Of a stretch of 64,000 nt of DNA, positions 1,431 to 17,980 are shown piece by piece. The DNA comes from a candidate division FCPU426 bacterium (GTDB lineage Bacteria > Oederibacteriota > Muellerivitia > Muellerivitales > Muellerivitaceae). The translations under genes and the position numbers were made by a program. Numbering within the stretch: the stretch's first letter is position 1; every line of letters starts with the position of its first letter. The stretch is taken from the NCBI GenBank assembly GCA_963771075.1, contig CAVYSE010000007.1, positions 96,001 through 160,000 of the forward strand, written 5' to 3'. The notes under the pieces are model-generated. The model ran no database searches. It saw only the letters and a list, made by a program, of their open reading frames with translations, and was not told the DNA's origin.

Positions 1431-1507
<77 letters not shown>

Positions 1508-1522
1508 TATTTTTCAACGGTT

Positions 1523-2638
1523 TTACAACTTCACTTCTTGGCCGGCACCCGTCCGTGTCATATCCGTGTCAAACTGCCTCTCAACCTGTAGTAGTGCGTT
1601 CACCCGGTCCTTCCGGTCGATCCGGTTATACCGTTTGAACATGGCGTAGGTCTTATGGCCCGATATGGACATGATGACCGAGTCGCTTACCCCCGCCTTT
1701 CTTAGATTCGTCACCGCGCAATGCCTGAGATCGTGGAACTTAAAATTTCCGATCCCCACCATGCGGCACGCCCTCAAAAAGGCGGACTTGACGCTTTGCA
1801 TGCGCTTTCCCCTATGGGTGAAGACATAAGGGCTTCCAAGGGTCTTAGGGGTCCGTTTCAGGAGGTCTAACAAGCTCTCCGTCAAAGGGACTTCCCGTTT
1901 CTCCTGGGTCTTGGTGTCCGCGGCTTCCAGATTGATGACTTTGTTTTGAAAGTCCACCTGTTCCCACCGCAAACTCAAAATTTCCCCCTTCCTCATACCC
2001 GTCCAATAAGCCAATTGGACTATGGCACTCAGTCGGGGCGCGCAATAACCCAAGAGCGCCTCGTATTCTTCCGGCGTCAAGGTGCGGTCGCGGGATTCTT
2101 CCCGGAAGGGCCGTACCCTTTGGATCGGGTTTTTCTCAATCAAATCATTGAGGACCGCCCGATTCACGATAGCCTTGAGAGTCCCAAGGTCCCGGTTCAG
2201 TGTAGCGTTGGATAACGCCTTTCCGTTACGGCCTTGATTTAAGGCTTGGTTTCCGGCCTTCTTCCGTTGGGTTAAAAAGCCTTCCACAATGTCCGGCGTT
2301 AAGCTTCTCAAGGGTCTGTCACCGAAATAAGCCCTGAGCCGCTCGACCATCTGGATATCGTTCTGGTGGCTTTTCCTTCTTGCCTCGGAATAAGCCAGGA
2401 ACGAATCCGCCGCTTCGTTGAAGGTGACTTCCGGCTTTTCCACGGCCAAGAACTTTCCCGCCACCATTTCTTGCATGTGTTGGGCCAGTATCTTTTTGGC
2501 TTGGGCAACCGGTATTACACCCAATCGAACCCGCTTGCGCTTCTTCAATCCTCCCTCATCGATAAAGTAATCCAGGAAATACCCCTTTTCGTCCTTACGG
2601 AGAAATTGGGGCAATCCATGAACATTAGGTCTACTCAT
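1523..2638 (-). CDS. int: Tyrosine recombinase/integrase
   Basis: TGMRKGE, FHDLRH, ISGHKT...KRY catalytic residues; adjacent to attL. Confidence 0.96.
   Translation of the reverse strand: MSRPNVHGLPQFLRKDEKGYFLDYFIDEGGLKKRKRVRLGVIPVAQAKKILAQHMQEMVAGKFLAVEKPEVTFNEAADSFLAYSEARRKSHQNDIQMVERLRAYFGDRPLRSLTPDIVEGFLTQRKKAGNQALNQGRNGKALSNATLNRDLGTLKAIVNRAVLNDLIEKNPIQRVRPFREESRDRTLTPEEYEALLGYCAPRLSAIVQLAYWTGMRKGEILSLRWEQVDFQNKVINLEAADTKTQEKREVPLTESLLDLLKRTPKTLGSPYVFTHRGKRMQSVKSAFLRACRMVGIGNFKFHDLRHCAVTNLRKAGVSDSVIMSISGHKTYAMFKRYNRIDRKDRVNALLQVERQFDTDMTRTGAGQEVKL
1553..1575 (+). repeat. Putative integrase arm-type site CCGTGTCATAT(C/A)CGTGTCAAACT
   Basis: Tandem GTGTCA; recurs at 8036-8058, 12152-12174, 17620-17638 and 17738-17760. 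Confidence 0.7.
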
Positions 2639-2889
2639 GCGTCCCTCCTAATGTCCCCAGCACTTGGCATTTTATAATCAGAGTCCGCCCAAGATGGAAG
2701 GGGTTTTTTAAAAACTTGAAGAAACACCGAATACCAAACCCTCGGATACTTACCAACCTTCACAAAGGGAAGGGCACCGGTCTGCCGCCAATAGCGGACG
2801 GTATTGGGGGAAACACCGGCTTTTTCGGCAATGTCTTTGTCCGACATTAAAAAATTCCGCCGTTCGACATTTTTCCTACGATCTACCAT
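2635..2889 (-). CDS. Excisionase-like HTH DNA-binding protein (MerR/HTH_17-like)
   Basis: SDKDIAEKAGVSPNTVRYWRQTGALPFVKVG; 4-nt overlap with the int start; GGGAGG RBS. Confidence 0.8.
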   Translation of the reverse strand: MVDRRKNVERRNFLMSDKDIAEKAGVSPNTVRYWRQTGALPFVKVGKYPRVWYSVFLQVFKKPLPSWADSDYKMPSAGDIRRDA

Positions 2890-2914
2890 GGCCTACCTCC
2901 CTTTTTAAAAATTT

Positions 2915-2954
2915 TAAATAAACGACCCTCCAAAGAATTCTCTTTGGAGGGTCG
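2915..2954 (-). terminator. Perfect 14-bp inverted repeat with T-rich tail on the minus strand, just upstream of xis
   Basis: CGACCCTCCAAAGA-ATTC-TCTTTGGAGGGTCG (2923-2954). Confidence 0.55.
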
Positions 2955-3200
2955 AAAATTGGGTTGTGAAGCGTTCAAGGTTTGGGGGATTCTCCGGGCT
3001 GATTGACTTGGAATTTTGTTTTCGGTTGTCGAAGCGGAACAACTTGCGAGGGCGAAATCTTCGGGGCAGTAATCGCCCTTTAAATGCAAAATCTGAAATT
3101 CGTTTTTGGGGGTCATCCGTCACCGCCGTATTTTGTGATATTTATTTTGACTGTCTTAAGCGCCTAAACGTTTCATCAAAAAGAAATAATTATTTTGAAA

Positions 3201-3305
3201 TGTCACTGACCGTCACTTACTGCCGCTAACTGCCACTTGTGATCGGCAGTGATCTTTTGTGAGCATTCTCCGTGACCATCGTTAACCATGGATTGCCATG
3301 GATTG
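3201..3305. repeat. Two 10-bp-period direct-repeat arrays upstream of the Replic_Relax gene
   Basis: tgtcactgac/cgtcacttac/tgccgctaac/tgccacttgt and cgtgaccatc/gttaaccatg/gattgccatg; conserved in E2 at 13871-13975. Confidence 0.7.
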
Positions 3306-3398
3306 GACGCAATAGATTTTTATGACACTTAAAATTTTTGGGAGCGAAAGGAGAAATGAATCGTCCAAAAGGCATGAAAACAATTTCTGGAGGGAGCT

Positions 3399-4202
3399 AT
3401 GGGCCACTACCTGGAAATCAACGATACCGAAGCCCAGCACCTCGCCTGGATTCACTCCAACAAGTTCACCATCCCAGAGCTTTTCCAAAAGAAGTTTTAT
3501 CCCCAAGGCACCTATCGAAATACCTGTTACGTCCTCAGCAAATACGTCAAAAAAGGGTTCCTGCTTTTTGAAAAGGAAAATATGTTCGCGCATAACTTTT
3601 ATTTCCTGACCCTTCCGGCCATCCGCACCCTGGACGAGACAGGGCGGATGATCGTCATGGGCCGGAAGCACACCATCCGAATCAACCCCTATGAGCGACA
3701 GCATGACCTTATGGTCCAGGAGTTAAGAATCACCTTGGAGGCCACCCCCACCCTGGAAGACATCTTTTGGGTGAGTGACTTCGAAATGCGGGCAGGTATC
3801 ACCCCGCGAACAAAGGCCGAGTTCCTCAATGGGGAGCTGGAAAGAAACTGGCGGGTTAGGGCCTACGAAAGGGCAAAGTCCTTGGTCCGTAGGACGCCGG
3901 ACGGATACTTTGAAGCCGACTTCCAGGGGGAGAGACGGGCCTTTGTCCTGGAATTCGAGCGGACGGCCTATAACTGGAACATGGTCAAACGGATGGTCTA
4001 TAACTTGGACGACGCCTTTCCCAACGCCTGGCGGCTTGTTGTCTCGGAAACCTACCCCCATGCCTGGCGGATGATCCGCAACCTCCAAGCCTGGGTCATG
4101 GAAAGGGATCGGTCCAAGTGGTTGGTAAGCGACTTCGGCAGGGTAACGACCCGCCCATTCGAGAAAGTCTGGTTCCAGATCAGCAATCCTCTGCCGGAAT
4201 AA
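3399..4202 (+). CDS. Replication-relaxation (Replic_Relax, PF13814-like) protein: N-terminal wHTH plus PD-(D/E)xK-type domain
   Basis: Motifs QHDLMVQELR, RTPDGYF, FVLEFERT; GGAG RBS; same-length paralog in E2. Confidence 0.72.
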   Translation: MGHYLEINDTEAQHLAWIHSNKFTIPELFQKKFYPQGTYRNTCYVLSKYVKKGFLLFEKENMFAHNFYFLTLPAIRTLDETGRMIVMGRKHTIRINPYERQHDLMVQELRITLEATPTLEDIFWVSDFEMRAGITPRTKAEFLNGELERNWRVRAYERAKSLVRRTPDGYFEADFQGERRAFVLEFERTAYNWNMVKRMVYNLDDAFPNAWRLVVSETYPHAWRMIRNLQAWVMERDRSKWLVSDFGRVTTRPFEKVWFQISNPLPE

Positions 4203-4210
4203 CACCCCGT

Positions 4211-4381
4211 TGGCCGTGGAAAAAATGTCCTACGGTCTTTCATTCGGACGGAACTACAAATTTTAATCTTTCGGCTTTTTTAGGGGTGTTTTCCCATGCT
4301 CCGATGGCGAGCCCCCCTATCTCTGCATCAAGTACGGATGCGAGAAACGATAGGGGGGCTCGCCCTCTCCGCATGGGAAAA
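4211..4381 (+). other. Conserved non-coding structured module (three-stem hairpin 4289-4381); candidate origin/nick site or ncRNA
   Basis: 11-bp, 16-bp and 5-bp stems; compensatory changes versus 14966-15058 and 13402-13528(-); 4211-4287 identical to E2. Confidence 0.8.
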
Positions 4382-4708
4382 CCAGGAGACGTTATTTTTA
4401 AAAACAAGGATGAGACAAATTCAAATTAAAATCAGATTCAAGAGCAAGGCAAGGCAAACCGGAGCAGTATCCAGAGGTGGCAGGTTGGGATTGGAGTGGT
4501 GGGTGCAGGTTAGCGTGGTAGGTGGGTAAGACAAAGGCAGGGTAAGGGAAGTGGTAGTTTGGGATAGTTGGTAGGTTGTTGGTTATAGCTGTTTTAAACA
4601 GGGGTTAATCCTTCCTGATAACGTGGTTTTGGTTTTAAGGGGTGTTAATCTTAGGAACGACAAATTATGGTTCTTGTGGGTATAATGGTTTTCTAAAGGG
4701 GCAACAAT

Positions 4709-5032
4709 ATGCAGGGAACAGATTCAAAATTGACTGAAATCGTGAACCGCTTGGCGGAGGCTTATCACCCCGAGCGGATTTATCTTTTCGGTTCCACGGC
4801 TAGGGGCGACCAAGGCCCGGACAGCGATTTTGATTTAATGGTCGTAGTCCCTGATAACGCCCCGTCCCCCCTGCGCCGAAGCCGTTTGGCCTATGAGAGG
4901 CTTTGGGGTACGGGAACTGCGGCAGATGTTTTGGTTTGGACCCATACCGCCTTTGAAAGCCGGAAGGCCGTAATAGCCTCTTTACCCGCCACGATTCTCC
5001 GGGAAGGCCGTCTGCTTTATGGGGCCGCTTGA
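4709..5032 (+). CDS. Minimal nucleotidyltransferase (MNT), antitoxin-like
   Basis: IYLFGSTARGD...DSDFDLMVV (GS-x10-DxD); TATAAT at 4681-4686. Confidence 0.92.
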   Translation: MQGTDSKLTEIVNRLAEAYHPERIYLFGSTARGDQGPDSDFDLMVVVPDNAPSPLRRSRLAYERLWGTGTAADVLVWTHTAFESRKAVIASLPATILREGRLLYGAA

Positions 5033-5438
5033 AGCAGACCGCGCCGCTGAAACCAGGGCTTGGCTACATAAAGCCGCCCAAGACTTAAGGGGCGCTGAAA
5101 TTGACCGCCAAGCTGACCCTCCCTTTTTGGAAGACGTTTTGTTTCACTCCCAACAATCAGCCGAAAAATCTTTGAAGGCGTTCTTGTGCTGGCATGACCA
5201 ACCTTTCCGCAAAACCCATAACTTAGTTGAACTAGGAGAGCCTTGCGCCAAAGTGGACAGCACATTGGAACCCATCCTCCGAAAAGCCGCCGTCTTAACC
5301 GAATATGCTTGGAAATTTCGATATCCGGGAGACGTTGAAGTAATTGAAACGAAAGAAGCTGATGAGGCAATGGGTTTGGCCCGCCAGGTATTCGATGCGG
5401 TAAAGTTGCGGCTTCCGAAAGAAAGCCATCCAACATGA
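5019..5438 (+). CDS. HEPN domain protein (PF05168/COG2250 type)
   Basis: FHSQQSAEKSLKAFL, KTHNL, FRYPG; overlaps the MNT gene. Confidence 0.9.
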   Translation: MGPLEADRAAETRAWLHKAAQDLRGAEIDRQADPPFLEDVLFHSQQSAEKSLKAFLCWHDQPFRKTHNLVELGEPCAKVDSTLEPILRKAAVLTEYAWKFRYPGDVEVIETKEADEAMGLARQVFDAVKLRLPKESHPT

Positions 5439-5492
5439 GGATCGAAGTCGTCCTTTTTTGATGGAAGGTTCAGCTCAAACGGGGTGGATTTG

Positions 5493-5699
5493 TCACTCGA
5501 AAAAATTTTTTATGTCGATTTCAAAATGGTTGGCAAGTTTTTCAAGAAGGCGAACGGTGGGGTTTAACTTACCGGCTAAAAGACGGGATATTGTGGATTT
5601 CGCTACCTCTGCACCAAAGGCGACCTGCTCAGCGGTTTCTCCGCGTTTTTTGAGTGTCTTTTTTATGTTTTCAACGACCCGTTCCGAAGCACTTTTCAT
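5493..5699 (-). CDS. XRE/Cro-type HTH transcriptional regulator
   Basis: TAEQVAFGAEVAKSTISRLLAGKLNPTVRLLEKLANHF. Confidence 0.85.
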   Translation of the reverse strand: MKSASERVVENIKKTLKKRGETAEQVAFGAEVAKSTISRLLAGKLNPTVRLLEKLANHFEIDIKNFFE

Positions 5700-5763
5700 G
5701 CCCAGAGAATATATTTTTAAGTTATACTGCTAGTTGCTTATAGGAAACCTAAGAGGTGGGTCT

Positions 5764-6324
5764 ATGAAAAAACACTTGTGGCTTACGGGATTAACCTTTT
5801 CAGCGATTTTCGTTGTTTTTTTATCCTGTAATAAAATTACCACTCCGTTAGCACCTGGCTCCGGAACAAGCGCCAATAGCAGTAGCTTCATTTTGGCTTG
5901 TGGGTCAACTTTGCCTACATCAGCAAACAGTTGTTCGATAACTTTAACTTGTGGCACGGCTGTTGATTTGAGTTCCATTTTATCCGCAAATAGCACGAAT
6001 ATTTATGCTTGCGTCAACCCTTCCGGACTTCCAAAAAGCTTTAATAGTTCAAATGTTTATACGGGGTCAGCATACTGTTCAGCGCCAACAACCACATGTG
6101 CGGGACCGTCGGGATGCTCTGGCTCTTTAAATTCTTCAAACATAACCATAAATTGTGGGGACAATTTACCTTGTTCCGCAAACTCAGCTGTAATCACCAT
6201 AGCTTGTCCCACAATTACCGATTTAAGTTCGATTTCGTCGGTAAATAGCACAACCATTTACATGCACAATGCCCCTTGCAAGTTGCCTCAGAGCTTTAGC
6301 AGTAGCCATATTGTTTTGTATTAA
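5764..6324 (+). CDS. Ser/Thr/Cys-rich lipoprotein with an internally duplicated ~60-aa domain
   Basis: MKKH plus hydrophobic stretch plus FLSC lipobox; GAGG RBS; repeat CG..LP.SANS..IT..C....DLSSI.S.NST.IY. Confidence 0.75.
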   Translation: MKKHLWLTGLTFSAIFVVFLSCNKITTPLAPGSGTSANSSSFILACGSTLPTSANSCSITLTCGTAVDLSSILSANSTNIYACVNPSGLPKSFNSSNVYTGSAYCSAPTTTCAGPSGCSGSLNSSNITINCGDNLPCSANSAVITIACPTITDLSSISSVNSTTIYMHNAPCKLPQSFSSSHIVLY

Positions 6325-6353
6325 TTTGGCAGATAAGCATTCAGAGGTAAATC

Positions 6354-7229
6354 ATGAAGCCTGCATTGTTTTTGGTAATTTTGGTAGTAATGGTCGTAGT
6401 TCCTGCCTTGTCGTTGGCCCAAACACCTACACCTTCTGCACCTCAATACATAGCTGATGGAAACAAATATTACGCAATAAAAGATTATTCAAAGGCTTTG
6501 TTGTATTACCAAGCGGCCACCCAGTCGGACCCAGGAAGTGCCGTGGCTTTTCAGGGACTCGGAAACGCCAATTATATGTTGGGTCAAAAGACAACAGCTC
6601 TCGCTGCCTATGAAAAAGCGATGGCTTTAGATCCCACGAATGCTCAATTGAGCAATTTCGTTCAAACGCTAAAAACTCAAAATAATGAATCTTCAAAAGT
6701 TGTTACGGCTACCCCTACCCCATCAGTCCTTCAATTTTCAAGAATTGAAATAGATTTGATGGGTGGGATTGATGAGCCAGTAAACCCAGATGGATATGCG
6801 CTAAGCTTTGGAGGGGGAGGCACATTTTACCTTTCGTTGAATCGTGCCACGGCTATTGGCATTTCTCTTTCTTTGTATTCTTTTTCATATCAAGCCTCTA
6901 GCGCCACCAGTACTGTGAATGGTATTACCACCTCTTCTCAAAGCGGGGGAGGATCGGCTACCGAGTTTGAAGGATTGGCGGTTTTCAAGTTTCGGCTGAG
7001 TACTGGAAATTTTGAACCGTACATATTGGTTGGTGCCGGATTATCAGATTACAATGATACCGTTGATGGATCGGTGCTAAATCCCGCAATTAGTGGCGGG
7101 CTTGGTTGCGAATTTAGTTTGGGGTCCGGGACAAATCTTTTTTTAGAAGGCAAAACCAACGCGATAATTGCTTCGAATACGACTATTATCCACATACCGA
7201 TGGAAGCAGGCATCAACTTTGATCTTTAA
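6354..7229 (+). CDS. Secreted TPR protein with C-terminal outer-membrane beta-barrel
   Basis: Signal peptide, TPR helices, TATPTP linker, alternating beta-strands (EPYILVGAG, LFLEGK, AGINFDL). Confidence 0.75.
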   Translation: MKPALFLVILVVMVVVPALSLAQTPTPSAPQYIADGNKYYAIKDYSKALLYYQAATQSDPGSAVAFQGLGNANYMLGQKTTALAAYEKAMALDPTNAQLSNFVQTLKTQNNESSKVVTATPTPSVLQFSRIEIDLMGGIDEPVNPDGYALSFGGGGTFYLSLNRATAIGISLSLYSFSYQASSATSTVNGITTSSQSGGGSATEFEGLAVFKFRLSTGNFEPYILVGAGLSDYNDTVDGSVLNPAISGGLGCEFSLGSGTNLFLEGKTNAIIASNTTIIHIPMEAGINFDL

Positions 7230-7364
7230 TTCCAAGCTCTTTCTGGAAAAAGCAGAAAAAAGAGGCGAGAAACGTAAGATCATTCAGGGAAGCTACGGGA
7301 AGAAATGCCAAATATTAAAAATCTTATGACGGTAAGTTTAAGAAAGTGATAAAGGAGAATTCTC

Positions 7365-7961
7365 ATGCGGCCAAGAACCCCTGTTATTTTATTATTGTTT
7401 GCGACATTGTTAAGTTTAACCTTAGCTGGTTGCAAAGATGCGGAAGTGGCCCCAATGGTTCTTCCGCAATTCAACCAATACTTCCCAGCTACAACGTTGT
7501 TTCAGGTTGATAAACGATTTCTTTGGGTACAAACCAACATAGACGGAATTAGCGCGGCGGCGGCGGAGTTGATGTTTAAGCAGGATTGCGGCCAGGCCTT
7601 GCCAGCGATACAACAAAAATCATTCGGGCTGATTAAAAATTTATCCACGGCCTTATCTATCGCCGGTAAACAGGTTTTAATTGTTGGATTTAAAAACTAT
7701 TGGGTTGTTTGGGTTGTCCGCAATGGGATTGACACCCAGGGGCTTCCTTACAACTACCAGGTCTTGAATTACCAGCAGTTCAGTAGTTGGCTTATCCAGG
7801 TTATGGGCGCTGTTCCTACACCGGACCAGATCAAGGTCGTTACTTTGGAAAACGTCCAAGCTACCCCCAAAGGCCAGCCTGTAATAGCCCCCACCTTGGC
7901 CCAGGTTCGCCAACAGGTGGCCCAACAACCCCAAGTTAACAACCCGACCTTTGCGGAATAA
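7365..7961 (+). CDS. Hypothetical lipoprotein
   Basis: LAGC lipobox; AAGGAG RBS. Confidence 0.75.
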   Translation: MRPRTPVILLLFATLLSLTLAGCKDAEVAPMVLPQFNQYFPATTLFQVDKRFLWVQTNIDGISAAAAELMFKQDCGQALPAIQQKSFGLIKNLSTALSIAGKQVLIVGFKNYWVVWVVRNGIDTQGLPYNYQVLNYQQFSSWLIQVMGAVPTPDQIKVVTLENVQATPKGQPVIAPTLAQVRQQVAQQPQVNNPTFAE

Positions 7962-8112
7962 AAATTAAATCCTTGGGTGAGCTTTTAAACGTCAGCGTGC
8001 CAATGAAGTCGGTCGGGATGTTTTCATGGGTTTCGCCGTGTCATATACGTGTCAAACTCGACCGTCAAAATCGAGTTTTGACCGTCGCCAAGTGTCCTTG
8101 ACCGTCACCAAC

Positions 8113-8161
8113 AAAAAAAGCCTCTGCCTGCTTGGGTTGTGAAACCCTTGCAGGCAAAGGC
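8113..8161 (-). terminator. Hairpin plus T-tract (minus strand) inside the attR arm; related copy at 17814-17863
   Basis: AAAAAAA-GCCTCTGCCTGC...GCAGGCAAAGGC. Confidence 0.5.
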
Positions 8162-8222
8162 CTTAAAAATCTGCTGGGGACTTTAAAATTTTAAAAATGT
8201 TCCAACTGTGTTGTCGAATGAA

Positions 8223-8267
8223 CTTCTAAGCAGTAGGTCCCGCGTTCGAATCGCGGCAGGCGCACCA
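8223..8267 (+). repeat. attR of E1: displaced 3' half of tRNA-Arg(TCT)
   Basis: Identity starts at the anticodon loop (CTTCTAAGCAGT) and ends CAGGCGCACCA; T-arm differs by compensatory changes. Confidence 0.92.
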
Positions 8268-8419
8268 TATTTTACTAAATCCCAGGGGCGAAGGATTACA
8301 AACGTTGTTTTGGAAAACGTCTGAAAAGTTTTCGTGAAAAAGGGCTTTTTTATCTGAGATTTTTGATGGGCTAGAGTTCTGCTAAGTTTTCTCTTCCTTT
8401 ATGAATCGTCAAATTAATC

Positions 8420-8448
8420 TTTACAATTGAAAGGCCAAAAATTAAACT
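8420..8448 (+). promoter_or_regulatory. Putative sigma70 promoter of the His-Arg-Lys tRNA cluster
   Basis: TTTACA-17 bp-TAAACT. Confidence 0.5.
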
Positions 8449-8611
8449 TTTATGGCTTTTCTCCCGGACCATGTTTTCTGATGAAATCGGGAAAATAAAC
8501 TTGCTGGTGAGCCCGGTTTGGATGGGCCGCCAGCTTGTTTGTTTCTGGCCTTTTGGCCAGTTGGGGAGCGGTTGGGATTGCACCGTCCCTGACCCCGTTT
8601 CGGAAACGCAT

Positions 8612-8689
8612 GGTGGGAGTAGCTCAATTGGTTAGAGCACCAGATTGTGGATCTGGGGGTTGCGGGTTCGATTCCCGTCTCTCACCCCA
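8612..8689 (+). tRNA. tRNA-His(GTG)
   Basis: CCAGA-TTGTGGA-TCTGG; encoded G-1 and C73; CCA. Confidence 0.96.
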
Positions 8690-8775
8690 CTTGATCCGGC
8701 CGTCCTAACGGTCCGGGGCGTCCCGTACCGAGGTGGAGTGGTGGCTGGTTGCTCCCGCGTAAATAGTTGGAGGAT

Positions 8776-8852
8776 GCGCCTGTAGCTCAGTTGGATAGAG
8801 CGACAGATTCCGGATCTGTAGGTCAGAGGTTCGAGCCCTCTCAGGCGTACCA
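8776..8852 (+). tRNA. tRNA-Arg(CCG)
   Basis: ACAGA-TTCCGGA-TCTGT; CCA. Confidence 0.96.
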
Positions 8853-8971
8853 TTTTTTTTTAAATATGGCGGACGAAGTTTGCCATCAGGTTAGAAATGG
8901 GGATGTACCGATTAGTTGGAAAGTTGTTTTCGGAAAATTGGCACATACCATTTTTCATTATGTTTGGTTTT

Positions 8972-9047
<76 letters not shown>

Positions 9048-9177: not shown

Positions 9178-11518
9178 ATGCGCTACGGATACTTTGATGT
9201 TCCAAATAAAGAGTATGTGATCGAAAGGCCCGATACACCGGTGCCTTGGATGAACTACCTGCATAATGACGAGTATTGCGCACTCATTTCCAATAACGCT
9301 GGAGGATACAGCTTTCACCTATCCGCCCGAGACAAGAGGATTTTGCGTTATCGATTAAATAATATTCCGGTGGATCGCCCAGGAAGATATATTTATGTTC
9401 GGGACGAACAAGATGGAGATTATTGGTCCGCGACTTGGCAGCCCGTCCTGAAAGACCTGTCCGACTATAAGACGGAAACACGCCATGGATTTCGGATATA
9501 CCCGCGTTACCTCCGCATATAAGGGGTTAGAAATGGAAACCCTCTATGTGGTTCCCGTGAAGGATAATTTGGAACTCTGGCATTTGACCCTAACCAACCG
9601 TACATCCAAAACCAAGACGCTCAACTTGATTTCCTATGCGGAACTTTGCCTCTTTTTCGCACAAAACGACATGATCAACTTTCAATATACCTACAACATC
9701 GCGAGATGTTTTGAAAAGAATGGGATGATTCATCATACGACGATGATCGAAAATGCCGGGCATTACGCCTTTTTCACCGCGAGCAAACCCTACACTTCCT
9801 TTGATTGCGACAGGGAAAAGTTCATGGGGCCATATCATTCGGAAGCTAACCCCCAGGCAGTTTTGGACGGAAAATGCTTCAATTCCGAAGCGAATGGTGG
9901 AAACCCGGTAGCCGCGACGTCGATCCCGGTAACACTTAAGCCTGGGGAGAGCAAATCCATTACCTATATATTAGGCGTGGCGCCCTCCATGGCGGCCGGT
10001 GCTAAATTGGCGGCCAAGTACCGTAAATCGGGAGCTGTCGAACGGGCTATGGATGAATTGAAAGAACATTGGGATGAGAAGCTGGGTTCCTTGACGGTGA
10101 ACACGCCGGATAAAGACATCAATTTATGTTTGAACCAATGGAATGCTTATCAAGTGCATACCACGTTCAGTATGTCCCGCGGCCCCTCCATTTATGAGGG
10201 TGGTATTGGACGAGGGATGGGATTCCGGGACAGCAACCAGGATGTGCTGAGCGTGATTCACAGTGTGCCTGGGAAGGTGAAAAAACTCATCACTGATTTG
10301 GCTAAGAACATGTTCAAGGACGGAACCGCGTATCACCAGTTTTTCCGGTTGACCGGCGAAGGGGACGGTAAAGGATATTCGGACGATCCGCTTTGGATCA
10401 TTCTTTCCACAACCGCATACGTCAAAGAAACAGGTGATTTCAAGTTTTTAAACGAAAAGATCGCTTGGGCCGATGGCGGGACAGCCACCATGTACGAGCA
10501 TCTTCGGGCGCCATTGGATTACACATATAAAAACGTTGGAAGCCACAAGATTCCCTGCATGGGTTTCGCTGATTGGAATGATACCCTCCAGATCAACGGA
10601 CCGAAACCAGGAGAGAGCGTTTGGGTGGCCGAGTTCCTCGTGAAATGCGCCAATGATTTCGTTGAATTGGCCGAAGCGCTGGGCAAAAAAGGGGACGCCC
10701 AAAAGTATCGCAAGATGGCAGCGGATATGGGCGCCCGTACTAATAAAGTTTGCTGGGACGGGGATTGGTACGCAATGGCTTTTGATGGATGGGGAACCAT
10801 GCTGGGTTCCAATAAGCAAAAAGACGGAAAGGTTTATTTGAACACCCAAACCTGGGCGGTCATCTCCGGGGTTGCCGATCAAAAAAGGGGCGAAGAATGC
10901 ATGGATGCGGTGCGTGAGTACCTGGATTCCAAATATGGGGTGGCCCTTATGTACCCTGGCTTTAAGCATTTCAGCCCCCGCTTGGGCGGGGTGAGTACCT
11001 TTCCCCCGGGTTTGAAGGAAAACGGTGGAATCTTCTCGCATGCCAATCCATGGGCTGTCATTGCCGAAACGATTTTAGGACGGGCGGATGTCGCGATGAA
11101 ATATTACAAGCAATTATTGCCGACAACAAAGGACCAGATCCAGGATGTGCACAAAGCGGAACCCTATATCTATGCCCAGGCCATCGCTTCTAGGGAACAC
11201 CGTGACTTCGGATTTGCGAGAAATTCCTGGTTGACCGGAGCTGCTTCCTGGAACTATGTGGCAGCCACTCAATATATATTGGGTATTCGGCCGACCTACT
11301 CGGGGCTCCGGGTGGATCCTTGTATACCAAAGGACTGGAAAGAGTATCAGGTGACTCGATTGTTCCGTGGAGTGGAATACCACATTCGAGTGAAGAACCC
11401 CAGACACATCAGTAAGGGTGTCGCTTTTATGACCGTGAATGGCAAGAAGTTTGATGGAAACGTCATTCCGGCGCAAAAGTCGAGCAAAAAAATCGAGGTT
11501 GAGGTTGTGCTGGGTTAA
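9178..11518 (+). pseudogene. GH94 glycoside phosphorylase (cellobiose/chitobiose phosphorylase family), split by one frameshift near 9490 (real or sequencing error)
   Basis: MRYGYFD...PDTPVPWMNYL, GRGMGFRDSNQD, ADWNDTL, KENGGIFSH, NSWLTGAASW; extra T in GGATTTCGGA. Confidence 0.85.
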
Positions 11519-11541
11519 TTGGATTTAAGCATCTTAAATGG

Positions 11542-11574
11542 ACCAAGCCCTAACAAACGTTAGGGCTTGGTTTT
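11542..11574 (+). terminator. Intrinsic terminator after the GH94 gene
   Basis: ACCAAGCCCTAAC-AAAC-GTTAGGGCTTGGT-TTT. Confidence 0.8.
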
Positions 11575-11623
11575 CATCAAAATAGTGTGGAACGGGCCGT
11601 GAAAAGAGCCGTTTTAGGTTTCG

Positions 11624-11652
11624 TTGACAGCCCTCAAACAGCATGCTATAAG
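11624..11652 (+). promoter_or_regulatory. sigma70 promoter of spoVS
   Basis: TTGACA-17 bp-TATAAG with TGn extension. Confidence 0.7.
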
Positions 11653-11692
11653 AAGCTTGCTTAAGCTTCGGCGAGGGAAGAAGGAGCCACGC

Positions 11693-11974
11693 TTGGTCGC
11701 CATCATGACGTTGAAAGTCGCCGCAAAAAGCAACCCCTCCACCGTGGCAGGCGCCATCGCCAATAACGTAAGGGATGGAAAAGGCGTGGAAATTGTCGCC
11801 ATGGGGCCTGAAAGTATCAATAACACGGTCAAGGCTATTGCCATCGCGCGAGGTTTTTTGCGCGGGGATGGGATGGACGCTTATTTCAAACCCGAATTTA
11901 TTCATCTCACGATTGATGGAGAAAAGAAAAGCGCGATCAAGTTCATTTTGAGCGTCGAAAAGAACGAAAAGTAA
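11693..11974 (+). CDS. spoVS: SpoVS family protein (start TTG 11693 or ATG 11705)
   Basis: LKVAAKSNPSTVAGAIA...NNTVKAIAIARGF...SAIKF; AAGGAG RBS. Confidence 0.92.
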   Translation: MVAIMTLKVAAKSNPSTVAGAIANNVRDGKGVEIVAMGPESINNTVKAIAIARGFLRGDGMDAYFKPEFIHLTIDGEKKSAIKFILSVEKNEK

Positions 11975-11994
11975 TACAGATGATTTCTATGTTG

Positions 11995-12028
11995 AAACCC
12001 TGGCCTTAGGACCGGGGTTTTTTATTTT
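11995..12028 (+). terminator. Intrinsic terminator-like hairpin after spoVS
   Basis: AAACCCTGG...CCGGGGTTT plus T-tract. Confidence 0.65.
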
Positions 12029-12029
12029 A

Positions 12030-12106
12030 GGGCGAATAGCTCAGTTGGTTAGAGCACCTGCTTTACACGCAGGGGGTCACAGGTTCGAATCCTGTTTCGC
12101 CCACCA
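12030..12106 (+). tRNA. tRNA-Val(TAC); attL of element E2
   Basis: CCTGC-TTTACAC-GCAGG; CCA. Confidence 0.96.
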
Positions 12107-12121
12107 TATTTTTCAACGGTT

Positions 12122-13225
12122 TTACGACTTCACTTCCTGGCCGGCAAGGATCCGTGTCATATCCGTGTCAAACTGCCTCTCAACCTGTTGTAGCGCGTTC
12201 ACCCGGTCCTGCCGGTCGATCCGGTTGTACCGTCTGAACATCGCATAGGTCTTGTGGCCCGATATGGACATGATGACCGAGTCGTTCACCCCCGCCTTCC
12301 GCAAGTTGGTCACCGCGCAATGCCGGAGATCGTGGAACCGGAAGTTCTTGATCCCCGCCTTACGGACCGCTTTCCTGAAGCCGGTCTTGATGTTCTTGAT
12401 GCGCTGGCCCTTGTAGGTGAAGACATAGGGGCTTCCCAGGTTCCGGGGTGTCCGTTTCAGGAGTTTCAAAAGCCCCTCCGTCAATGGCACCTCCCGCTTC
12501 TCCTGGGTCTTGGTGTCCGCGGCTTCCAGGGTGACGACCTTGTTTTGGAAGTCCACCTGTTCCCACCGCAGGCCCAAAATCTCCCCCCGCCGCATTCCCG
12601 TCCAATAAGCCAGCTGGACGATTGCGGAAAGGCGCGGGGAACAAAACCCCAAGAGGCTTTGGAATTCCTCAAGCGTCAAGGTGCGGTCCCGTGATTCTTC
12701 CCGGAAGGCCCGAACCTTTTGAATCGGGTTTTTCTCCAACAAGCCGTTGAAGACAGCCCGGCTCATGATGCTTTTGATTACTCCAAGGTCCCGGTTCAAG
12801 GTGCAGTTGGAAAGGGGTTTTCCCCCAAAGGCAACATTGCCCGCTTTCCGCCTTTGGGTCAAATAACCCTCAACAATGTCCGGCGTTAAACTTTTCAAGG
12901 GCCTGTTACCAAAGTAACCCTTGAGCCGCTTAACCATCTGGATATCGTTCTCGTGGCTTTTCCTTCTTGCCTCGGAATAAACCAGGAACAAATCCGCCGC
13001 TTCGGTGAAGGTGACTTCCGGCTTGTCCTCGGCCAGGAACTTTTCAGCCACGATTTCCCTCGTGTGCTGGGCTAAGACCTGCTTTGCCTGGGTCAAAGGA
13101 ATGAACCCCAACCGCACTCTTTTGCGCTTTCTTATACCTCCTTCCCGGATGAAGTAATCCAGAAAATACCCCTTATCGTCCTTGCGGAGAAATTGGGGCA
13201 ATCCATGAACATTAGGTCTACTCAT
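12122..13225 (-). CDS. int: Tyrosine recombinase/integrase, close paralog of the E1 integrase
   Basis: TGMRRGE, FHDLRH, ISGHKT...RRY. Confidence 0.96.
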   Translation of the reverse strand: MSRPNVHGLPQFLRKDDKGYFLDYFIREGGIRKRKRVRLGFIPLTQAKQVLAQHTREIVAEKFLAEDKPEVTFTEAADLFLVYSEARRKSHENDIQMVKRLKGYFGNRPLKSLTPDIVEGYLTQRRKAGNVAFGGKPLSNCTLNRDLGVIKSIMSRAVFNGLLEKNPIQKVRAFREESRDRTLTLEEFQSLLGFCSPRLSAIVQLAYWTGMRRGEILGLRWEQVDFQNKVVTLEAADTKTQEKREVPLTEGLLKLLKRTPRNLGSPYVFTYKGQRIKNIKTGFRKAVRKAGIKNFRFHDLRHCAVTNLRKAGVNDSVIMSISGHKTYAMFRRYNRIDRQDRVNALQQVERQFDTDMTRILAGQEVKS

Positions 13226-13401
13226 GCGTCCCTCCTAATGTCCCCAGCACAAACATATTACCAGGGGCCAAGATTTTTTCAAAAGAAGTACCCAGCACAA
13301 CCGCCGAAAACGCGAAAAGTTCAATAACGCCTTCAAAGTGTTGGAAGCATGGGTTTGGGTTGTTTGATTTGGGTTTGAAGTTAGAAGTGGCTTTAATTAG
13401 T

Positions 13402-13528
13402 GCCGCAATATGGGCGGCCAAGCGAACCAAGAGGCCAGACCCCACTACCGTTTTCCTGGATAGGAACTTGATCCAGGGGGAGTGGGGTCTGGCGTCGCAG
13501 GTGAGAAAACAGCCGCCCATATTGCGGC
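13402..13528 (-). other. Diverged third copy of the three-stem hairpin motif
   Basis: Perfect stems of 17 bp (13402-13418/13512-13528), 13 bp (13434-13446/13481-13493) and 7 bp (13455-13461/13471-13477); ATCAAGT apex on the minus strand. Confidence 0.8.
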
Positions 13529-14074
13529 TATTTCCTGAAAAAAGATGTGAGTCAGAGTCACGTTCCGCTTTAAGCAGGTTTAAGTTCCGGCTCAAGCGAG
13601 TCGTGCCTCTCTTTTGGTGGATCGTTAAATTGAGTTGTGAAGCGTTCAAGGTTTGGGGGATTCTCCGGGTTGATTGACTTGGATTTGAAAGTTCACTTGT
13701 CGAAGGGTAACAACTTGCGAGGACGAAATCTTCGGGGAAGTAATCGCCCTTTAAATGCAAAATCTGAAATCTAAAAAGTTCGTTCATCCGTCACCGCCGT
13801 GTTTTGTGATATTTATTTTGACTCTCTTGAGCGCCTAAACGTTTCTTTGAACGGAATAATTTTTTTGAATTGTCACTGACTGCCACTTACCGCCGCTAAC
13901 TGCCACTTGTGATCGGTAGTGATCGTTTATGCGCATTCTCCGTAACCATCGTTAACCATGGATTACCATGGATTGACGCAATAGATTTTTATGACACTCA
14001 AAATTTTTGGGAGCGAAAGGAGAAATGAACCGTCCAAAAGGCATGAAGACAATCTCCCTGCAAGGATGCGGTCC

Positions 14075-14878
14075 ATGAGCCAATACCTTGAAATCAGCGA
14101 TACCGAAGCTCAGCACCTCGCCTGGATTCACTCAAACAAGTTCACCATCCCCGAGTTATTCCAAAAAAAGTTTTATCCCCAAGGCACCTACCGAAACGCT
14201 TGTTACGTTCTCAGCAAATACGTCAAAAAAGGTTTTCTGCTTTTCGACAAGCCCCACATGTTCGCGCATAACTTTTACTTCCTGACCATTCAAGCCATTC
14301 GCACCATGGACGAGACAGGGCAGATGATTGTCATGGGCCGAAAACACCCCATCCGAATCAACCCCTACGAGCGACAGCATGACCTTATGGTTCAGGAGCT
14401 AAGAATCACCTTGGAGGCCTGCCCTAGCTTGGTGGATATCTTTTGGGTCAGTGACTTCGAAATGCGGGCTGGTATCACCCCGCGAACCAAGGCCGAATTC
14501 CTTAATGGGGAGTTAGAAAGCAACTGGCGGGTGAGGGCCTATGAAAGGGCTAAGTCCTTGGTCCGAAGGACGCCGGACGGGTACTTTGAAGCCGACTTCC
14601 AGGGGGATAGGCGGGCATTTGTCCTGGAATTCGAGCGGACGGCCTACCACTGGAACATGGTCAAGCGGATGGTCTATAACCTGGACGATGCCTTTCCCCA
14701 TGCCTTGCGGCTTGTCGTCTCGGAAACCGTGCCCCATTCCAGGCGGATGATCCGCTACCTGCAAGCCTGGGTCCGGGAGAAAGACCTTTCTTGGTGGTTC
14801 GTGAGTGACTTTCAGAAGCTGACGACCCAGCCTTTCGAAGACTGCTGGTATCAAATCAACCATCCCTTGGAGCAATAG
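14075..14878 (+). CDS. Replication-relaxation (Replic_Relax-like) protein, paralog of 3399-4202
   Basis: Start chosen by alignment to E1 (267 aa each); same motifs. Confidence 0.72.
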   Translation: MSQYLEISDTEAQHLAWIHSNKFTIPELFQKKFYPQGTYRNACYVLSKYVKKGFLLFDKPHMFAHNFYFLTIQAIRTMDETGQMIVMGRKHPIRINPYERQHDLMVQELRITLEACPSLVDIFWVSDFEMRAGITPRTKAEFLNGELESNWRVRAYERAKSLVRRTPDGYFEADFQGDRRAFVLEFERTAYHWNMVKRMVYNLDDAFPHALRLVVSETVPHSRRMIRYLQAWVREKDLSWWFVSDFQKLTTQPFEDCWYQINHPLEQ

Positions 14879-14887
14879 GGGGTTTCC

Positions 14888-15058
14888 TGGCCGTGGAAAA
14901 AATGTCCTACGGTCTTTCATTCGGACGGAACTACAAATTTTAATCTTTCGGCTTTTTTAGGGGTATTTTCCCGTGTTCCGATGGCGAGCCCCCCTATCTC
15001 TGCATCAAGTACGGATGCAAGAAACGATAGGGGGGCTCGCCCTCTCCACACGGGAAAA
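14888..15058 (+). other. Conserved non-coding structured module (hairpin 14966-15058)
   Basis: TTTTCCCGTGT/ACACGGGAAAA and GGCGAGCCCCCCTATC/GATAGGGGGGCTCGCC stems. Confidence 0.8.
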
Positions 15059-15252
15059 CCAGAGGCGTTATTTTTAAAAAAAAGGATGATACAAATTCAA
15101 ATTAAAATCAGATTCAAGAACAAGACAAAGCAAACCGGAGCAGTATTCAGAGGGGGTAGGTTGGAATGGAAGTGGTAGTGCAGTTTTGGGTGGTAGGTGG
15201 TGAAGGGGGTTGGTGTATAATCAGGGGCAGGTGAATTCTTGAAAGTGAAAAA

Positions 15253-15585
15253 ATGATTCAACTCAAAGATCGTTCAACAACAGAAGAACTTCAGGAAGTG
15301 GTTGAGAGGGTTATCGGCAGGTTTCATCCCGATAGAATCCTCCTCTATGGTTCTTTTGCTTATGGTGATCCCCGCCCGGACAGTGACTTTGATTTATTGG
15401 TGGTCTTGCCCGACCCTCCCGCCCGGCAGGTTGGATGGGAAGCGGCTCATGAAATACGCCTCAAACATCCCCTTCAATTGGTTTTCATGAAGACTGAAGT
15501 GTTCGAGGAAACCAAAGACGTTGTCGGGGGCCTTGCCTATCCCGCCAATCATTGGGGAAAAGTGCTCCATGAAAAGGCTTCGTGA
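15253..15585 (+). CDS. Minimal nucleotidyltransferase (MNT)
   Basis: ILLYGSFAYGDPRPDSDFDLLVV; TATAAT at 15216-15221. Confidence 0.9.
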   Translation: MIQLKDRSTTEELQEVVERVIGRFHPDRILLYGSFAYGDPRPDSDFDLLVVLPDPPARQVGWEAAHEIRLKHPLQLVFMKTEVFEETKDVVGGLAYPANHWGKVLHEKAS

Positions 15586-15997
15586 ACAGGTCATTTGGGA
15601 CTTTATTCAAGGCTGGCTTAAAAAAGCCGAGAGCGACCTAATCGCCGCCGAGATAACTCTAAATACAAAATCAGAAGACCATTTCATCTCCGCTTTCCAC
15701 TCCCAGCAAGCCGTTGAAAAATACCTAAAGGCTTTTCTCATTTGGCGACAGGTGCCCTATCTCAAAACCCATGAGATCAAAAAATTATTGTCTCTTTTCC
15801 CGGCGGAAGACGCGGAGCTGGTAAAGGGATTGTCTGAAGCTGATTGGTTGACGCCCTTTGGGGTTGAATTTCGTTATCCAGGCGATGAAGTTGCCGACCT
15901 GGAAACGGCAAAGAAAGCCGTGGACCAGGCAAAAAAAGTTCAGAAAATCTTCTTTGGATGCCTAAAAGATTATCTCGAAAAGGGACGACCTGGTTAG
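15569..15997 (+). CDS. HEPN domain protein (PF05168/COG2250 type)
   Basis: FHSQQAVEKYLKAFL, KTHEI, FRYPG. Confidence 0.9.
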   Translation: MKRLREQVIWDFIQGWLKKAESDLIAAEITLNTKSEDHFISAFHSQQAVEKYLKAFLIWRQVPYLKTHEIKKLLSLFPAEDAELVKGLSEADWLTPFGVEFRYPGDEVADLETAKKAVDQAKKVQKIFFGCLKDYLEKGRPG

Positions 15998-16004
15998 GGG
16001 AAAT

Positions 16005-16667
16005 TTGTTGCCTACTCAAAAATGTTACACGGAAAAAGAGCTTATAAAAGAGTTGAAAAAATTTAAGCCTAAATGGAAAAAATGGTTTAACTTTCACCGA
16101 TTGTGGGAACAGGATAGTGAAATAGAAAAGTTTATCCGCCATGCCGTTGACGGGAGTACATTCAGAGCTTTTCGCGGAGTTAAAAACCCAGCAATAAAAT
16201 TTAGAATTTGGGCGAAAAAGTATTTGACCGACAAGCGTTTAGAAGAACTTCGTAAAATAAAAAGTCAAACCGAATATTCTGAATGGCTAAACGATATGAG
16301 AAAACACTTGCAAGGCCATTGGAAAGCCAAAAAGAAAATGGATTACGGCCATGCCATGAAACTCTCAAACCTATTGGTAAAGCAACTTTGTTGTTCAAAA
16401 AGGGAAATACCGCAAAAAACGTTCAATGAAATAATCGAGTTCATCGAGGTGCCGCTTGATAAATATTCTCTTCAAGCCATAGCCAATTGTAAAAAATATT
16501 TGCCGGAAGACGTCAAGATTAAAGGAACTGATGCGATGGGTTATATAAAAAACGATAAGAAAAAGTACAAAAAAATTCAGGATGGTATTCGAATGCTTAT
16601 CAATGAAAATAAAGTAAAAGTGCCTCCAATTGCTTTCGATTTATTCGTTTGGAACCATGCCCATTAA
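16005..16667 (+). CDS. Basic hypothetical protein, possibly helix-hairpin-helix glycosylase-like fold
   Basis: YGHAMKLSNLLVKQL...EVPLDKYSL...Y..IQ..IR...PIAFDLFVW; AT-rich. Confidence 0.6.
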   Translation: MLPTQKCYTEKELIKELKKFKPKWKKWFNFHRLWEQDSEIEKFIRHAVDGSTFRAFRGVKNPAIKFRIWAKKYLTDKRLEELRKIKSQTEYSEWLNDMRKHLQGHWKAKKKMDYGHAMKLSNLLVKQLCCSKREIPQKTFNEIIEFIEVPLDKYSLQAIANCKKYLPEDVKIKGTDAMGYIKNDKKKYKKIQDGIRMLINENKVKVPPIAFDLFVWNHAH

Positions 16668-16706
16668 GGTCCAATAAAGAACATTATGAAAAGAAACGGA
16701 GGAAAA

Positions 16707-17603
16707 ATGAATAAAGTATTATTTGTATTATTGGCACTTGGACTAAGTGGCCCATTGATGGCAAATGACAAAATTGTGGTACAGATTAATAACGATATAT
16801 CCATGGAGAACTATAAAAAAGACCTCTACTTAGCGATGCATTTTTACAAATTGAAAAATTTTAAGGAAGTTTTAAAAGAACTTAAGAAATTTGAAAAGGA
16901 TACGGCTGTTGAAAATCCTTCGCCAAGTGGACAAGCGACTTATTCATACATCCTTTATCGAGTAACGATGTACCAAGCCCAAATGGCACAAAAACAAGGG
17001 AATAAAATTTTGTATTTGGAGTGTAAGGATAAAGCTAGAGATCTATTAGACAGGATTCAAAATATTAGTGATGTGAATGACGAAAGGGTTAATCAAGCAC
17101 TTGGACCTGGGCACGGCGGAGCTATCCTAGTTGCGATAGATGAAATAAAACCTTATTTTGATTGTTACGATAGTAACGAAAGAAATTGTGATGATTACTT
17201 TGTTCAACCGATTGCTACTCCAACCCCTGAAATGATACCCGTGACTGTATCCGTCGAGTTGTCGCCAAAAGCCACTCCGGTAATAAATATGGGTTATTAT
17301 GAATATAAAAATCCCCCGGGTTTGCAAGTAACGATGAATTGGAACCCGATTCTTGAAAGCACAAATGCCGCAACTACGGTAATTTATCTTCCTAAGGGAA
17401 GCGGAAAGCGTTTTCAGATTGAGGAAGAATTTCCTAAAGATGAAAATGCATCATTTACCCTAGTGATTTCTCAACCTGGATCAGAATCCGTAACAAGTCA
17501 TGGAGTTGATTGTAGTGCTGGTCTTGGTTGTCGCCGGGCAATGATAGACGTTAGAGCGGGAGAAAATATTTCAAATATGTTAAGTGAATCCAGCGGAAAT
17601 TAA
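16707..17603 (+). CDS. Hypothetical secreted protein (helical N-domain, ATPTP linker, beta-rich C-domain)
   Basis: GGAGG RBS; signal peptide MNKVLFVLLALGLSGPLMA; AT-rich. Confidence 0.7.
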   Translation: MNKVLFVLLALGLSGPLMANDKIVVQINNDISMENYKKDLYLAMHFYKLKNFKEVLKELKKFEKDTAVENPSPSGQATYSYILYRVTMYQAQMAQKQGNKILYLECKDKARDLLDRIQNISDVNDERVNQALGPGHGGAILVAIDEIKPYFDCYDSNERNCDDYFVQPIATPTPEMIPVTVSVELSPKATPVINMGYYEYKNPPGLQVTMNWNPILESTNAATTVIYLPKGSGKRFQIEEEFPKDENASFTLVISQPGSESVTSHGVDCSAGLGCRRAMIDVRAGENISNMLSESSGN

Positions 17604-17935
17604 ACTGTAGGATCAATCGGTGTCATATACGTGTCAAATTTGGACTCACTGAATGAATTGCAGGCAGTCTTTTTTACGACCCCCTCCATGAAATGCAGGG
17701 GCTTACAAGGCACAGGCGGTAAAAATTAGTCGTTCTGCCGTGTCATATACGTGTCAAACTTAACCATGCTTTACGATGCTTGACCATCACTTACCGCCGT
17801 TTACCGCCACTTCAAAAAAAGAGCCCTTGCCGCTCAGGTCGTAAAACCGTTGCAGGCAAAGGCCCTTGAAACTGTGCTGGGGACTGTGAATTTTTAAACT
17901 CGCTCTAAAAGAGCGTCCAAATATGGTTTCGGTGA

Positions 17936-17980
17936 TTTACACGCAGGGGGTCACAGGTTCGAATCCTGTTTCGCCCACCA
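17936..17980 (+). repeat. attR of E2: 3' half of tRNA-Val(TAC)
   Basis: 45 bp identical to 12062-12106. Confidence 0.95.

Follow-up and report, generated by a model that had tools for sequence, protein, structure and literature searches.

How might a small element integrated in a tRNA gene move between cells if it encodes neither capsid nor secretion genes? The question is raised by a 64,000-nucleotide stretch of an uncultured soil bacterium from candidate division FCPU426 (GenBank assembly GCA_963771075.1, contig CAVYSE010000007.1, positions 96,001 to 160,000; "the window"), in which two sibling elements, E1 and E2, were originally predicted to be a new mobile-element family that replicates or is mobilised by a Replic_Relax protein and is stabilised by a toxin–antitoxin (TA) pair. 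We propose, with a probability of roughly three in four, that E1 and E2 are integrative and mobilizable elements (IMEs) with a MOB_C relaxase which, for transfer, use the coupling protein and mating channel provided by a larger, related integrative and conjugative element (ICE) from the same bacterial family.

Results and Discussion

Two site-specific insertions

As measured by the spacing of the attachment sites attL and attR, E1 comprises 6760 bp and is integrated in tRNA-Arg(TCT), and E2 comprises 5874 bp and is integrated in tRNA-Val(TAC).

1431–1507 (+), feature to 1512: tRNA-Arg(TCT), attL of E1; duplicated core 1463–1512, from the anticodon loop
1523–2638 (-): E1 tyrosine integrase, 371 aa (PF00589, E 4.8e-32)
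8036–8272 (+): E1 attR arm and attR core (core 8223–8272)
12030–12106 (+), feature to 12111: tRNA-Val(TAC), attL of E2; core 12062–12111
12122–13225 (-): E2 tyrosine integrase, 367 aa, 78% to the E1 integrase
17618–17985 (+): E2 attR arm with two arm-site pairs; attR core 17936–17985
1553–1575, 8036–8058, 12152–12174, 17618–17640, 17738–17760 (+): paired 9-bp direct repeat, likely integrase arm site
3207–3236, 13877–13906, 8079–8108, 17781–17810 (+): three 10-bp-phased repeats, candidate Xis sites

The attR cores are identical to the attL cores at 42/50 (E1) and 49/50 (E2) positions, confirming both elements where they had been predicted; with an integrase and attL/attR direct repeats present in each, the insertion is site-specific, at tRNA anticodon loops. 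The five copies of the paired 9-bp repeat lie within the end of each int and in both attR arms, the phased repeats in each control region and each attR arm. The claimed DNA homology was found as well, with 80% identity across 1226 nt of int, 86% across 1599 nt of control region, relaxase gene and hairpin, and 75% across 164 nt of the attR arm. The claim of a shared gene order holds for most modules, but xis (2635–2889) occurs only in E1, and E2 has an unrelated 377-bp segment with a second hairpin. As predicted, no capsid, type IV secretion system (T4SS) or primase match was obtained when 21 open reading frames (ORFs) were scanned for families, nor was a coupling-protein match. Between the two tRNA-Arg 3'-half copies (1463–1512 and 8223–8272) there are 8 differences, most of which compensate each other within the T stem.

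A predicted MOB_C-type relaxase

Both elements carry the gene described as Replic_Relax.

3399–4202 (+): E1 predicted MOB_C-type relaxase, winged helix-turn-helix (wHTH) plus PD-(D/E)XK; D168, E185 and E187 invariant in 63/63 homologues
14075–14878 (+): E2 predicted MOB_C-type relaxase, 85% to that of E1; longest ORF begins at 13991

Judged from homologues, fold and profile comparison, the 3399–4202 product is most likely a MOB_C-type relaxase. CONJscan recognises PF13814, the superfamily of MOB_C relaxases, as MobC (PMC5357655 Table 1), and the NCBI label for CloDF13-type MobC reads "MobC family replication-relaxation protein". The original statement that no HUH/MOB relaxase is present was wrong for this reason, and for the same reason the elements are probably IMEs and not a new class, although the family of small non-autonomous tRNA-integrated elements is real. 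PF13814 is matched by 8/63 aligned homologues at E≤1 (best E 7.9e-6), and the top Atlas matches are Replic_Relax clusters (0.95). In the AF2 model (pLDDT 93.5) the N-terminal winged helix has many MarR-type structure matches (Z up to 10.1) and the C-terminal domain resembles restriction and nicking endonucleases (SdaI, Z 8.8, rmsd 3.9, 128 aligned; N.BspD6I, Z 8.5), with these Z 8–9 matches just moderately over background. MOB_C relaxases are wHTH plus PD-(D/E)XK enzymes (PMC12857230, PMC6736028), and reviews ascribe a wHTH plus restriction-nuclease-type architecture to pAD1 TraX. A profile of the family aligns with one of 20 CloDF13-type MobC proteins at a probability of 92.6 (E 4.5e-7, 187 columns, about 21% profile identity), covering H-x-L-x-VQ and the predicted catalytic triad PD..ExE, which aligns with PD..EvE of MobC. 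An intact relative was used for this comparison; the original CloDF13 record, in which mobC is not intact, gave a probability of 2.6.

Relatives, helpers and distribution

In the following, L denotes loci of the collection, G genomes (G000 is the window's own) and C the contigs of a genome. Layouts mapped from 70 collection loci plus genome stretches fall into five types: full ICEs (layout C, 49–65 kb, VirD4 and VirB4), IMEs of about 10–12 kb with the order VirD4-relaxase-hairpin-xis-int (D), a plasmid-like block Rep-parAB-VirD4-relaxase-hairpin (P), VirD4-less elements of the E1/E2 kind (E/B), and islands that lack a relaxase and have one or two hairpins beside an integrase (L143, L144, L148 and L150; L143 ends at the contig edge before the integrase). 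Homologues are thus not pieces of prophages: full ICEs, VirD4-bearing IMEs, VirD4-less IMEs and relaxase-less islands form a family-restricted series with integrases and hairpin in common. The relaxase family was found in 21/30 same-family genomes, 1/1 same-order genome and, weakly, 2/29 genomes of other families, and the runs that hold it come under the labels peat, soil, bog, permafrost or plain metagenome; IMG/VR, PLSDB plasmids and phage records yielded no member. Integrases are common to several layouts and group mostly by tRNA target (30 rows, quick tree), and the modules therefore shuffle. The relaxase-less islands, which carry oriT-like (origin of transfer) hairpins plus a TA-like pair, are candidate oriT-only hitchers.

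The combination of VirB4, VirD4 and mating pair formation (MPF) genes within att ends, which marks an ICE, is absent from E1/E2 and was seen only in G009 relatives. G009 has two tandem complete ICEs at tRNA-Thr (65.4 and 48.7 kb), each ordered arm-VirD4-relaxase, then one hairpin, then VirB6-VirB4 block-xis-int-attR. The loci G009:C4 131837–245961 (L083–L088) and G000 C3 383213–398110 (L005, L078, L079) represent an undescribed MOB_C ICE family, in whose T4SS block only VirB4 and VirB6 are recognisable; a TPR-GGDEF gene lies between VirB4 and xis, and 7/9 other conserved genes scanned gave no significant Pfam match.

In the window's genome, C2 holds an ICE-type left end with intact VirD4 and hairpin, and C3 carries, along with a T4SS block, the xis-int-attR end belonging to that same tRNA-Asp, the candidate partner of the C2 end; the genome further has a D element (C27) and a P block (C12). 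VirB4 is present in 13/30 family genomes and in 6/8 genomes with a VirD4-less member. A second, distant VirB4/VirB6 cluster (C8 64007–71734, 33% identity) is another possible helper. The P block (C12 7678–13860, L003), like L070 and L074, comprises an HTH Rep-like gene, parA, parB, VirD4, relaxase and a perfect 23-bp hairpin beside insertion sequence and host-like genes.

These layouts bear on the original suggestion of replication, in which the Replic_Relax protein would be a replication initiator, the hairpin a replication origin and the circles satellite- or plasmid-like replicons. The family name, the lack of a coupling protein in E1/E2 and the occurrence of Replic_Relax genes with FtsK in the temperate Bacillus phage RBClin15 (PMC11526630) would agree with it. 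We consider it unlikely, as VirD4 genes accompany the homologues in ICEs and IMEs, plasmid-like L003 and L070 have a separate Rep-like gene and parAB besides VirD4-relaxase-hairpin, and the hairpin is kept in islands without a relaxase gene. Packaging of E1/E2 as satellites by a helper phage is extremely improbable: their size, int-xis-divergent layout and defence-like cargo look satellite-like, but neither element has primase/Rep, terminase or other packaging, capsid or capsid-modifying genes, no relaxase homologue was found in IMG/VR or 50,697 phage records, and the large relatives are all conjugative. Little support was thus left for the replication and satellite readings.

The oriT-like hairpin

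The relaxase gene is followed by a long hairpin and a repeat tract.

4288–4382 (+): E1 oriT-like hairpin, perfect 16-bp core stem 4306–4321/4349–4364; nick predicted by analogy in the G-run of the 3' arm (4353–4358)
4400–4660 (+): imperfect 6-bp-period repeats (about 4410–4465), then a G/T-rich tract (4480–4660: 70 G, 14 C)
14966–15058 (+): E2 oriT-like hairpin, core stem 14983–14998/15026–15041

Across 27 hairpin copies (L070 misaligned in this set) the 15-bp stem is paired in 95.8% of 405 cells, with 81 double changes and covariation that keeps strictly to Watson–Crick pairs; slid registers reached 44–54% and 0/500 shuffles an equally high pairing, a significance overstated because the copies share kinship. 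In 66 distinct copies the region 30–130 nt past the stem is periodic at lag 6 (541 vs 165±18) and lag 12 (367 vs 155±15), with lags 3 and 9 near background. According to reviews pAD1 TraX binds five direct repeats 70–120 bp from nic, and the CloDF13 nic (sequence quoted in PMC5935869) is found in a comparable long hairpin, on its G-rich 3' arm; counted by eye, its 11-mer is matched at 9/11 positions in plasmid-like L003 and 8/11 in L002. By sequence and by analogy, hairpin and 6-bp repeats are likely an oriT. Stem variants track the relaxase clade, with one variant in the E clade, two one-base neighbours in the ICEs and a more distant one in D; exceptions are L012, with an ICE-like stem, and L056/L058, with an E-like stem outside the clade. 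The relaxase-less L143 and L144 have ICE-type and D-type stems together.

Could the hairpin instead be a structured non-coding RNA or a terminator, for example regulating the TA pair? Strong covariation would equally fit an RNA, and in E- and D-type elements the hairpin lies just 3' of the relaxase stop and 5' of the TA slot. A DNA site is favoured because G-U pairs are nearly absent (2 among 388 paired cells), an Rfam search of 1200–18400 gave only tRNAs over threshold, and each ICE has a single copy 8–17 kb from the relaxase; no terminator was called either, and the second hairpin copy of E2 lies on the opposite strand. We therefore regard the RNA reading as quite unlikely.

Three further observations concern the hairpin modules. 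A strong G/T skew follows the repeats (4480–4660 and 15150–15240) in E- and ICE-type modules, L008 has a group II intron (8980–11060, RVT_1 and GIIM) directly 3' of the stem, and in L029 (8891–8983) and L028 the arms are homogenised into a perfect 33-bp inverted repeat without the internal loop, as after template switching.

The VirD4-less form as a lineage

From 91 relaxase matches of at least 215 aa, 79 distinct sequences were obtained, belonging to layouts C (37), D (17) and P (2), having no upstream VirD4 (19) or being undeterminable (4). The worry that homologues might occur only as fragments of prophages or ICEs is justified insofar as most belong to ICEs or VirD4-bearing IMEs (56/79 directly downstream of VirD4, as labelled), but the VirD4-less form is an intact clade: 18 of the 19 VirD4-less relaxases group together with support 99/99, only L058 being placed elsewhere. 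The dN/dS of the E1 relaxase against six clade members is 0.09–0.23, which points to purifying selection. The proposed search for int, Replic_Relax and hairpin in other genomes yielded seven more bounded elements, giving nine VirD4-less elements with both att ends (5705–8679 bp, at tRNA-Arg, Val and Asp; L029 and L107 are near twins). None of the nine has a VirD4 or T4SS match, and an own VirD4 upstream of the relaxase, as in CloDF13 and IME_Class_8, is accordingly found in 0/9.

The proposed check for an empty attB was successful: L055 is the exact empty site of filled L029 (and L107), with flanks matching at 346/348 and 348/348, and the tRNA-Arg site is empty in several family genomes, with joints 1512–8409 and 1508–8411 in two runs. 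On this comparative evidence the elements appear coherent and mobile, and the VirD4-less form is to be seen as a lineage, not debris. Decay of ICEs or VirD4-bearing IMEs into remnants without own transfer is conceivable, since the genome also holds genuine remnants (the fragment on C18, the arm on C11 and the split relaxase of C2) and E2 lacks xis; the single clade, the low dN/dS, intact att ends, three tRNA targets, differing cargo and the exact empty/filled pair make it very unlikely for E1/E2. The C18 remnant (217143–219450, L004) has a 3' relaxase fragment, an intact hairpin and MNT-HEPN after tRNA-Glu, and that on C11 is an isolated attR arm (2164–2326, L006). In one RNA run contigs cover relatives of the integrase and MNT genes, which is not proof of expression.

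Proposed mechanism

In the mechanism we propose, Int and Xis would excise a circle, with E2 needing Xis from E1 or a sibling because it lacks xis. The relaxase would bind the 6-bp repeats and nick the 3' arm of the hairpin, and the nicked DNA would be passed to VirD4 and the T4SS of the cognate ICE; the relaxase of the VirD4-less clade would derive or branch from the relaxase lineage of that ICE. The second hairpin of E2 may provide a second route through VirD4-bearing IMEs, and the TA-like pair 3' of the hairpin would limit loss.

Several results weigh against this proposal. The proposed check of the 3399–4202 protein against PF13814 gave no direct match in Pfam (E≤0.1), and NCBIfam and PADLOC gave none either, the assignment having required the homologues, fold and profile comparison given above; a Foldseek search of the model on PDB gave nothing at E≤0.001, and the structure matches are modest, as mentioned. 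The 3' arm of E1 matches the CloDF13 nic 11-mer at just 6/11 positions (by eye), and the kinship of the hairpin copies has been noted. In the midpoint-rooted tree the clade and the ICE relaxases meet in an unresolved fork. With regard to helpers, the relaxase of the ICE-type end on C2 is broken into two frames, C2 and C3 are not physically joined, and G010 (98% complete) and G016 (65%) hold VirD4-less members and no VirB4 match. Finally, no attR-to-attL joint was found in eight runs, which had low-depth contigs only and are uninformative on excision and copy number.

The xis region and the second hairpin of E2

Upstream of int the two elements differ.

2635–2889 (-): E1 excisionase-like HTH_17 gene, a recombination directionality factor (RDF; PF12728, E 3.5e-6); its stop overlaps the int start
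2883–3116 (-): E1 leader ORF, 77 codons, ends at the xis start and holds a terminator-like hairpin (2923–2954); function putative
13250–13626 (-): E2 segment in the xis position, 377 bp; second oriT-like hairpin of the type of VirD4-bearing IMEs
13218–13787 (-): E2 189-codon open frame, spans the second hairpin and reaches the int start; open in relatives, dN/dS about 1

The second hairpin of E2 (stem 13434–13446/13481–13493; outer 17-bp inverted repeat 13402–13418/13512–13528) is of the D type, 94% to L023 over 72 nt. L073 carries the same arrangement (95.7%), and the whole segment occurs in five further family genomes (75–94%), with the integrase downstream wherever the contig shows it. L143, from a same-genus genome and with the same tRNA-Val attR as E2, has the MNT-HEPN pair and arm of E2 and no relaxase.

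In nine such elements the segment is crossed by a frame that stays open for about 150–220 codons, counted from one stop to the next, and reaches the int start; stop-free frames through the second hairpin of xis-less elements are those of the window (13218–13787, -), L073, L112–L116, L120 and L122. With a dN/dS of 0.81–1.34 in five pairs, the 189-codon ORF does not qualify as a conserved protein; the chance of the frame staying open under random substitution is P 0.008, 0.006 and 0.0005 in the three most distant pairs and 0.3 in the two closest. In xis-bearing members a shorter frame from the same start crosses a terminator-like hairpin ahead of xis (14 pairs in E1), and a weaker hairpin with a T-run precedes xis in 10/11 other such members. 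We read the leader frame and hairpin before int or xis as putative translational coupling or attenuation. The 14-bp terminator-like hairpin of E1 (2923–2954, -), inside the leader ORF right before xis, is a possible attenuator.

The TA-like slot, cargo and neighbouring genes

Downstream of the hairpin each element has a TA-like pair and its own cargo.

4709–5438 (+): E1 MNT-HEPN pair (MNT 4709–5032, PF01909; HEPN 5019–5438, PF05168)
5493–7961: E1 cargo, Xre HTH 5493–5699 (-), cysteine-rich lipoprotein-like ORF 5734–6324, TPR 6354–7229, ORF of unknown function 7365–7961
15253–15997 (+): E2 MNT-HEPN pair (PF01909, PF05168)
16005–17603 (+): E2 low-GC cargo, two ORFs with no family match

MNT and HEPN genes are adjacent in both elements, with the MntA model below cut-off. 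The pairs are, as claimed, different genes (MNT 54% over 48 aa, HEPN 40%). The HEPN RNase motif of type VII MNT-HEPN toxin–antitoxin systems is Rx4-6H, and neither window HEPN has it in its translation. MNT-HEPN cannot be kept as a feature of the family, as the slot right after the hairpin holds various TA-like pairs: MNT-HEPN in E1, E2, L008, L143 and L144, a DUF5615 PIN in L009 and L010 (plus DUF433 in L148), DUF4258 in L030, an unknown-HTH_3 pair in L029, L033 and L107, and TacA-GNAT in L150. The TA-like slot is thus conserved in position and variable in identity. The E1 cargo block is also found in L033, at tRNA-Asp.

Between the elements a cellobiose phosphorylase (9178–11518) is apparently split into ORFs of 114 and 677 aa (cluster relatives have 783 aa) by a frameshift or assembly error, and a SpoVS-family gene (11624–11974) lies just 5' of tRNA-Val.

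Comparison with known systems

Canonical IMEs such as NBU1 and Tn4555 (PMC5704250) consist of a tyrosine integrase, RDF, relaxase and oriT and are devoid of a T4SS. Like E1/E2, they integrate in tRNA 3' ends, have xis and their own relaxase, lack coupling protein and MPF and often carry TA cargo; they differ in having HUH relaxases (MobP/Q/V) instead of the MOB_C (PD-(D/E)XK) type, and E2 deviates further, lacking an RDF and having two oriT-like hairpins. Streptococcal IME_Class_8 (Rel_PF13814/MobC; PMC5357655) also comprises integrated mobilizable elements with a PF13814 relaxase, but its two IMEs have VirD4 and a serine integrase, whereas E1/E2 have no VirD4 and a tyrosine integrase; its closer equivalents are the D-type siblings L002, L021–L025, L103 and L109. 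With CloDF13 MobB/MobC and pAD1 TraW/TraX-oriT2 the elements share a wHTH plus PD-(D/E)XK relaxase, a long hairpin with G-rich 3' arm and distant short direct repeats; unlike E1/E2, both are plasmids with their own coupling protein, the nic of E1/E2 is predicted, and no equivalent of TraX Y181 was identified. Relaxase-less mobilizable genomic islands and other oriT-only hitchers (MGIVflInd1; bioRxiv 10.64898/2026.01.13.699239) resemble the relatives L143, L144, L148 and L150, with integrase, hairpin(s) and no relaxase; E1/E2 keep the relaxase, and the helpers proposed here are putative.

Mobilizable forms arising by loss of conjugation genes, multiple oriTs and oriT-only islands are known already (PMC9185392, PMC11389934, bioRxiv 2026.01.13.699239), and the IME design is familiar overall. 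Among them the VirD4-less MOB_C form is unusual, since the MOB_C mobilizable elements described so far encode a VirD4 themselves; in those IMEs and mobilizable plasmids that have VirD4, its gene is paired with that of the relaxase. The literature searched holds no description of this family or of VirD4-less MOB_C IMEs; subscription papers were mostly outside the search, and elements of this kind may be contained without comment in large surveys.

Conclusion

A bolder version of our proposal, which we regard as tentative and probably too strong, is that one bacterial family hosts a complete ladder of MOB_C hitchhikers, from ICE through VirD4-bearing and VirD4-less IMEs to relaxase-less islands, in which oriT stem variants, differing by one to few bases, would be address codes for each relaxase clade. 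E1/E2 would then prove that a coupling protein supplied in trans can serve MOB_C relaxases, E2 would be a dual-oriT element for two helper classes, and in xis-less members a protein-neutral ORF through the second oriT would couple translation to integrase expression in place of xis. In the accounts cited, no covalent intermediate between relaxase and DNA has been observed for MOB_C. The conserved VirD4-less clade, together with natural matched and mismatched variants of relaxase, hairpin and VirD4, offers a test set for the delivery of the DNA to the secretion channel and for oriT specificity. Standard Pfam scans miss these relaxases, and islands of the E1/E2 type are therefore under-annotated at present.

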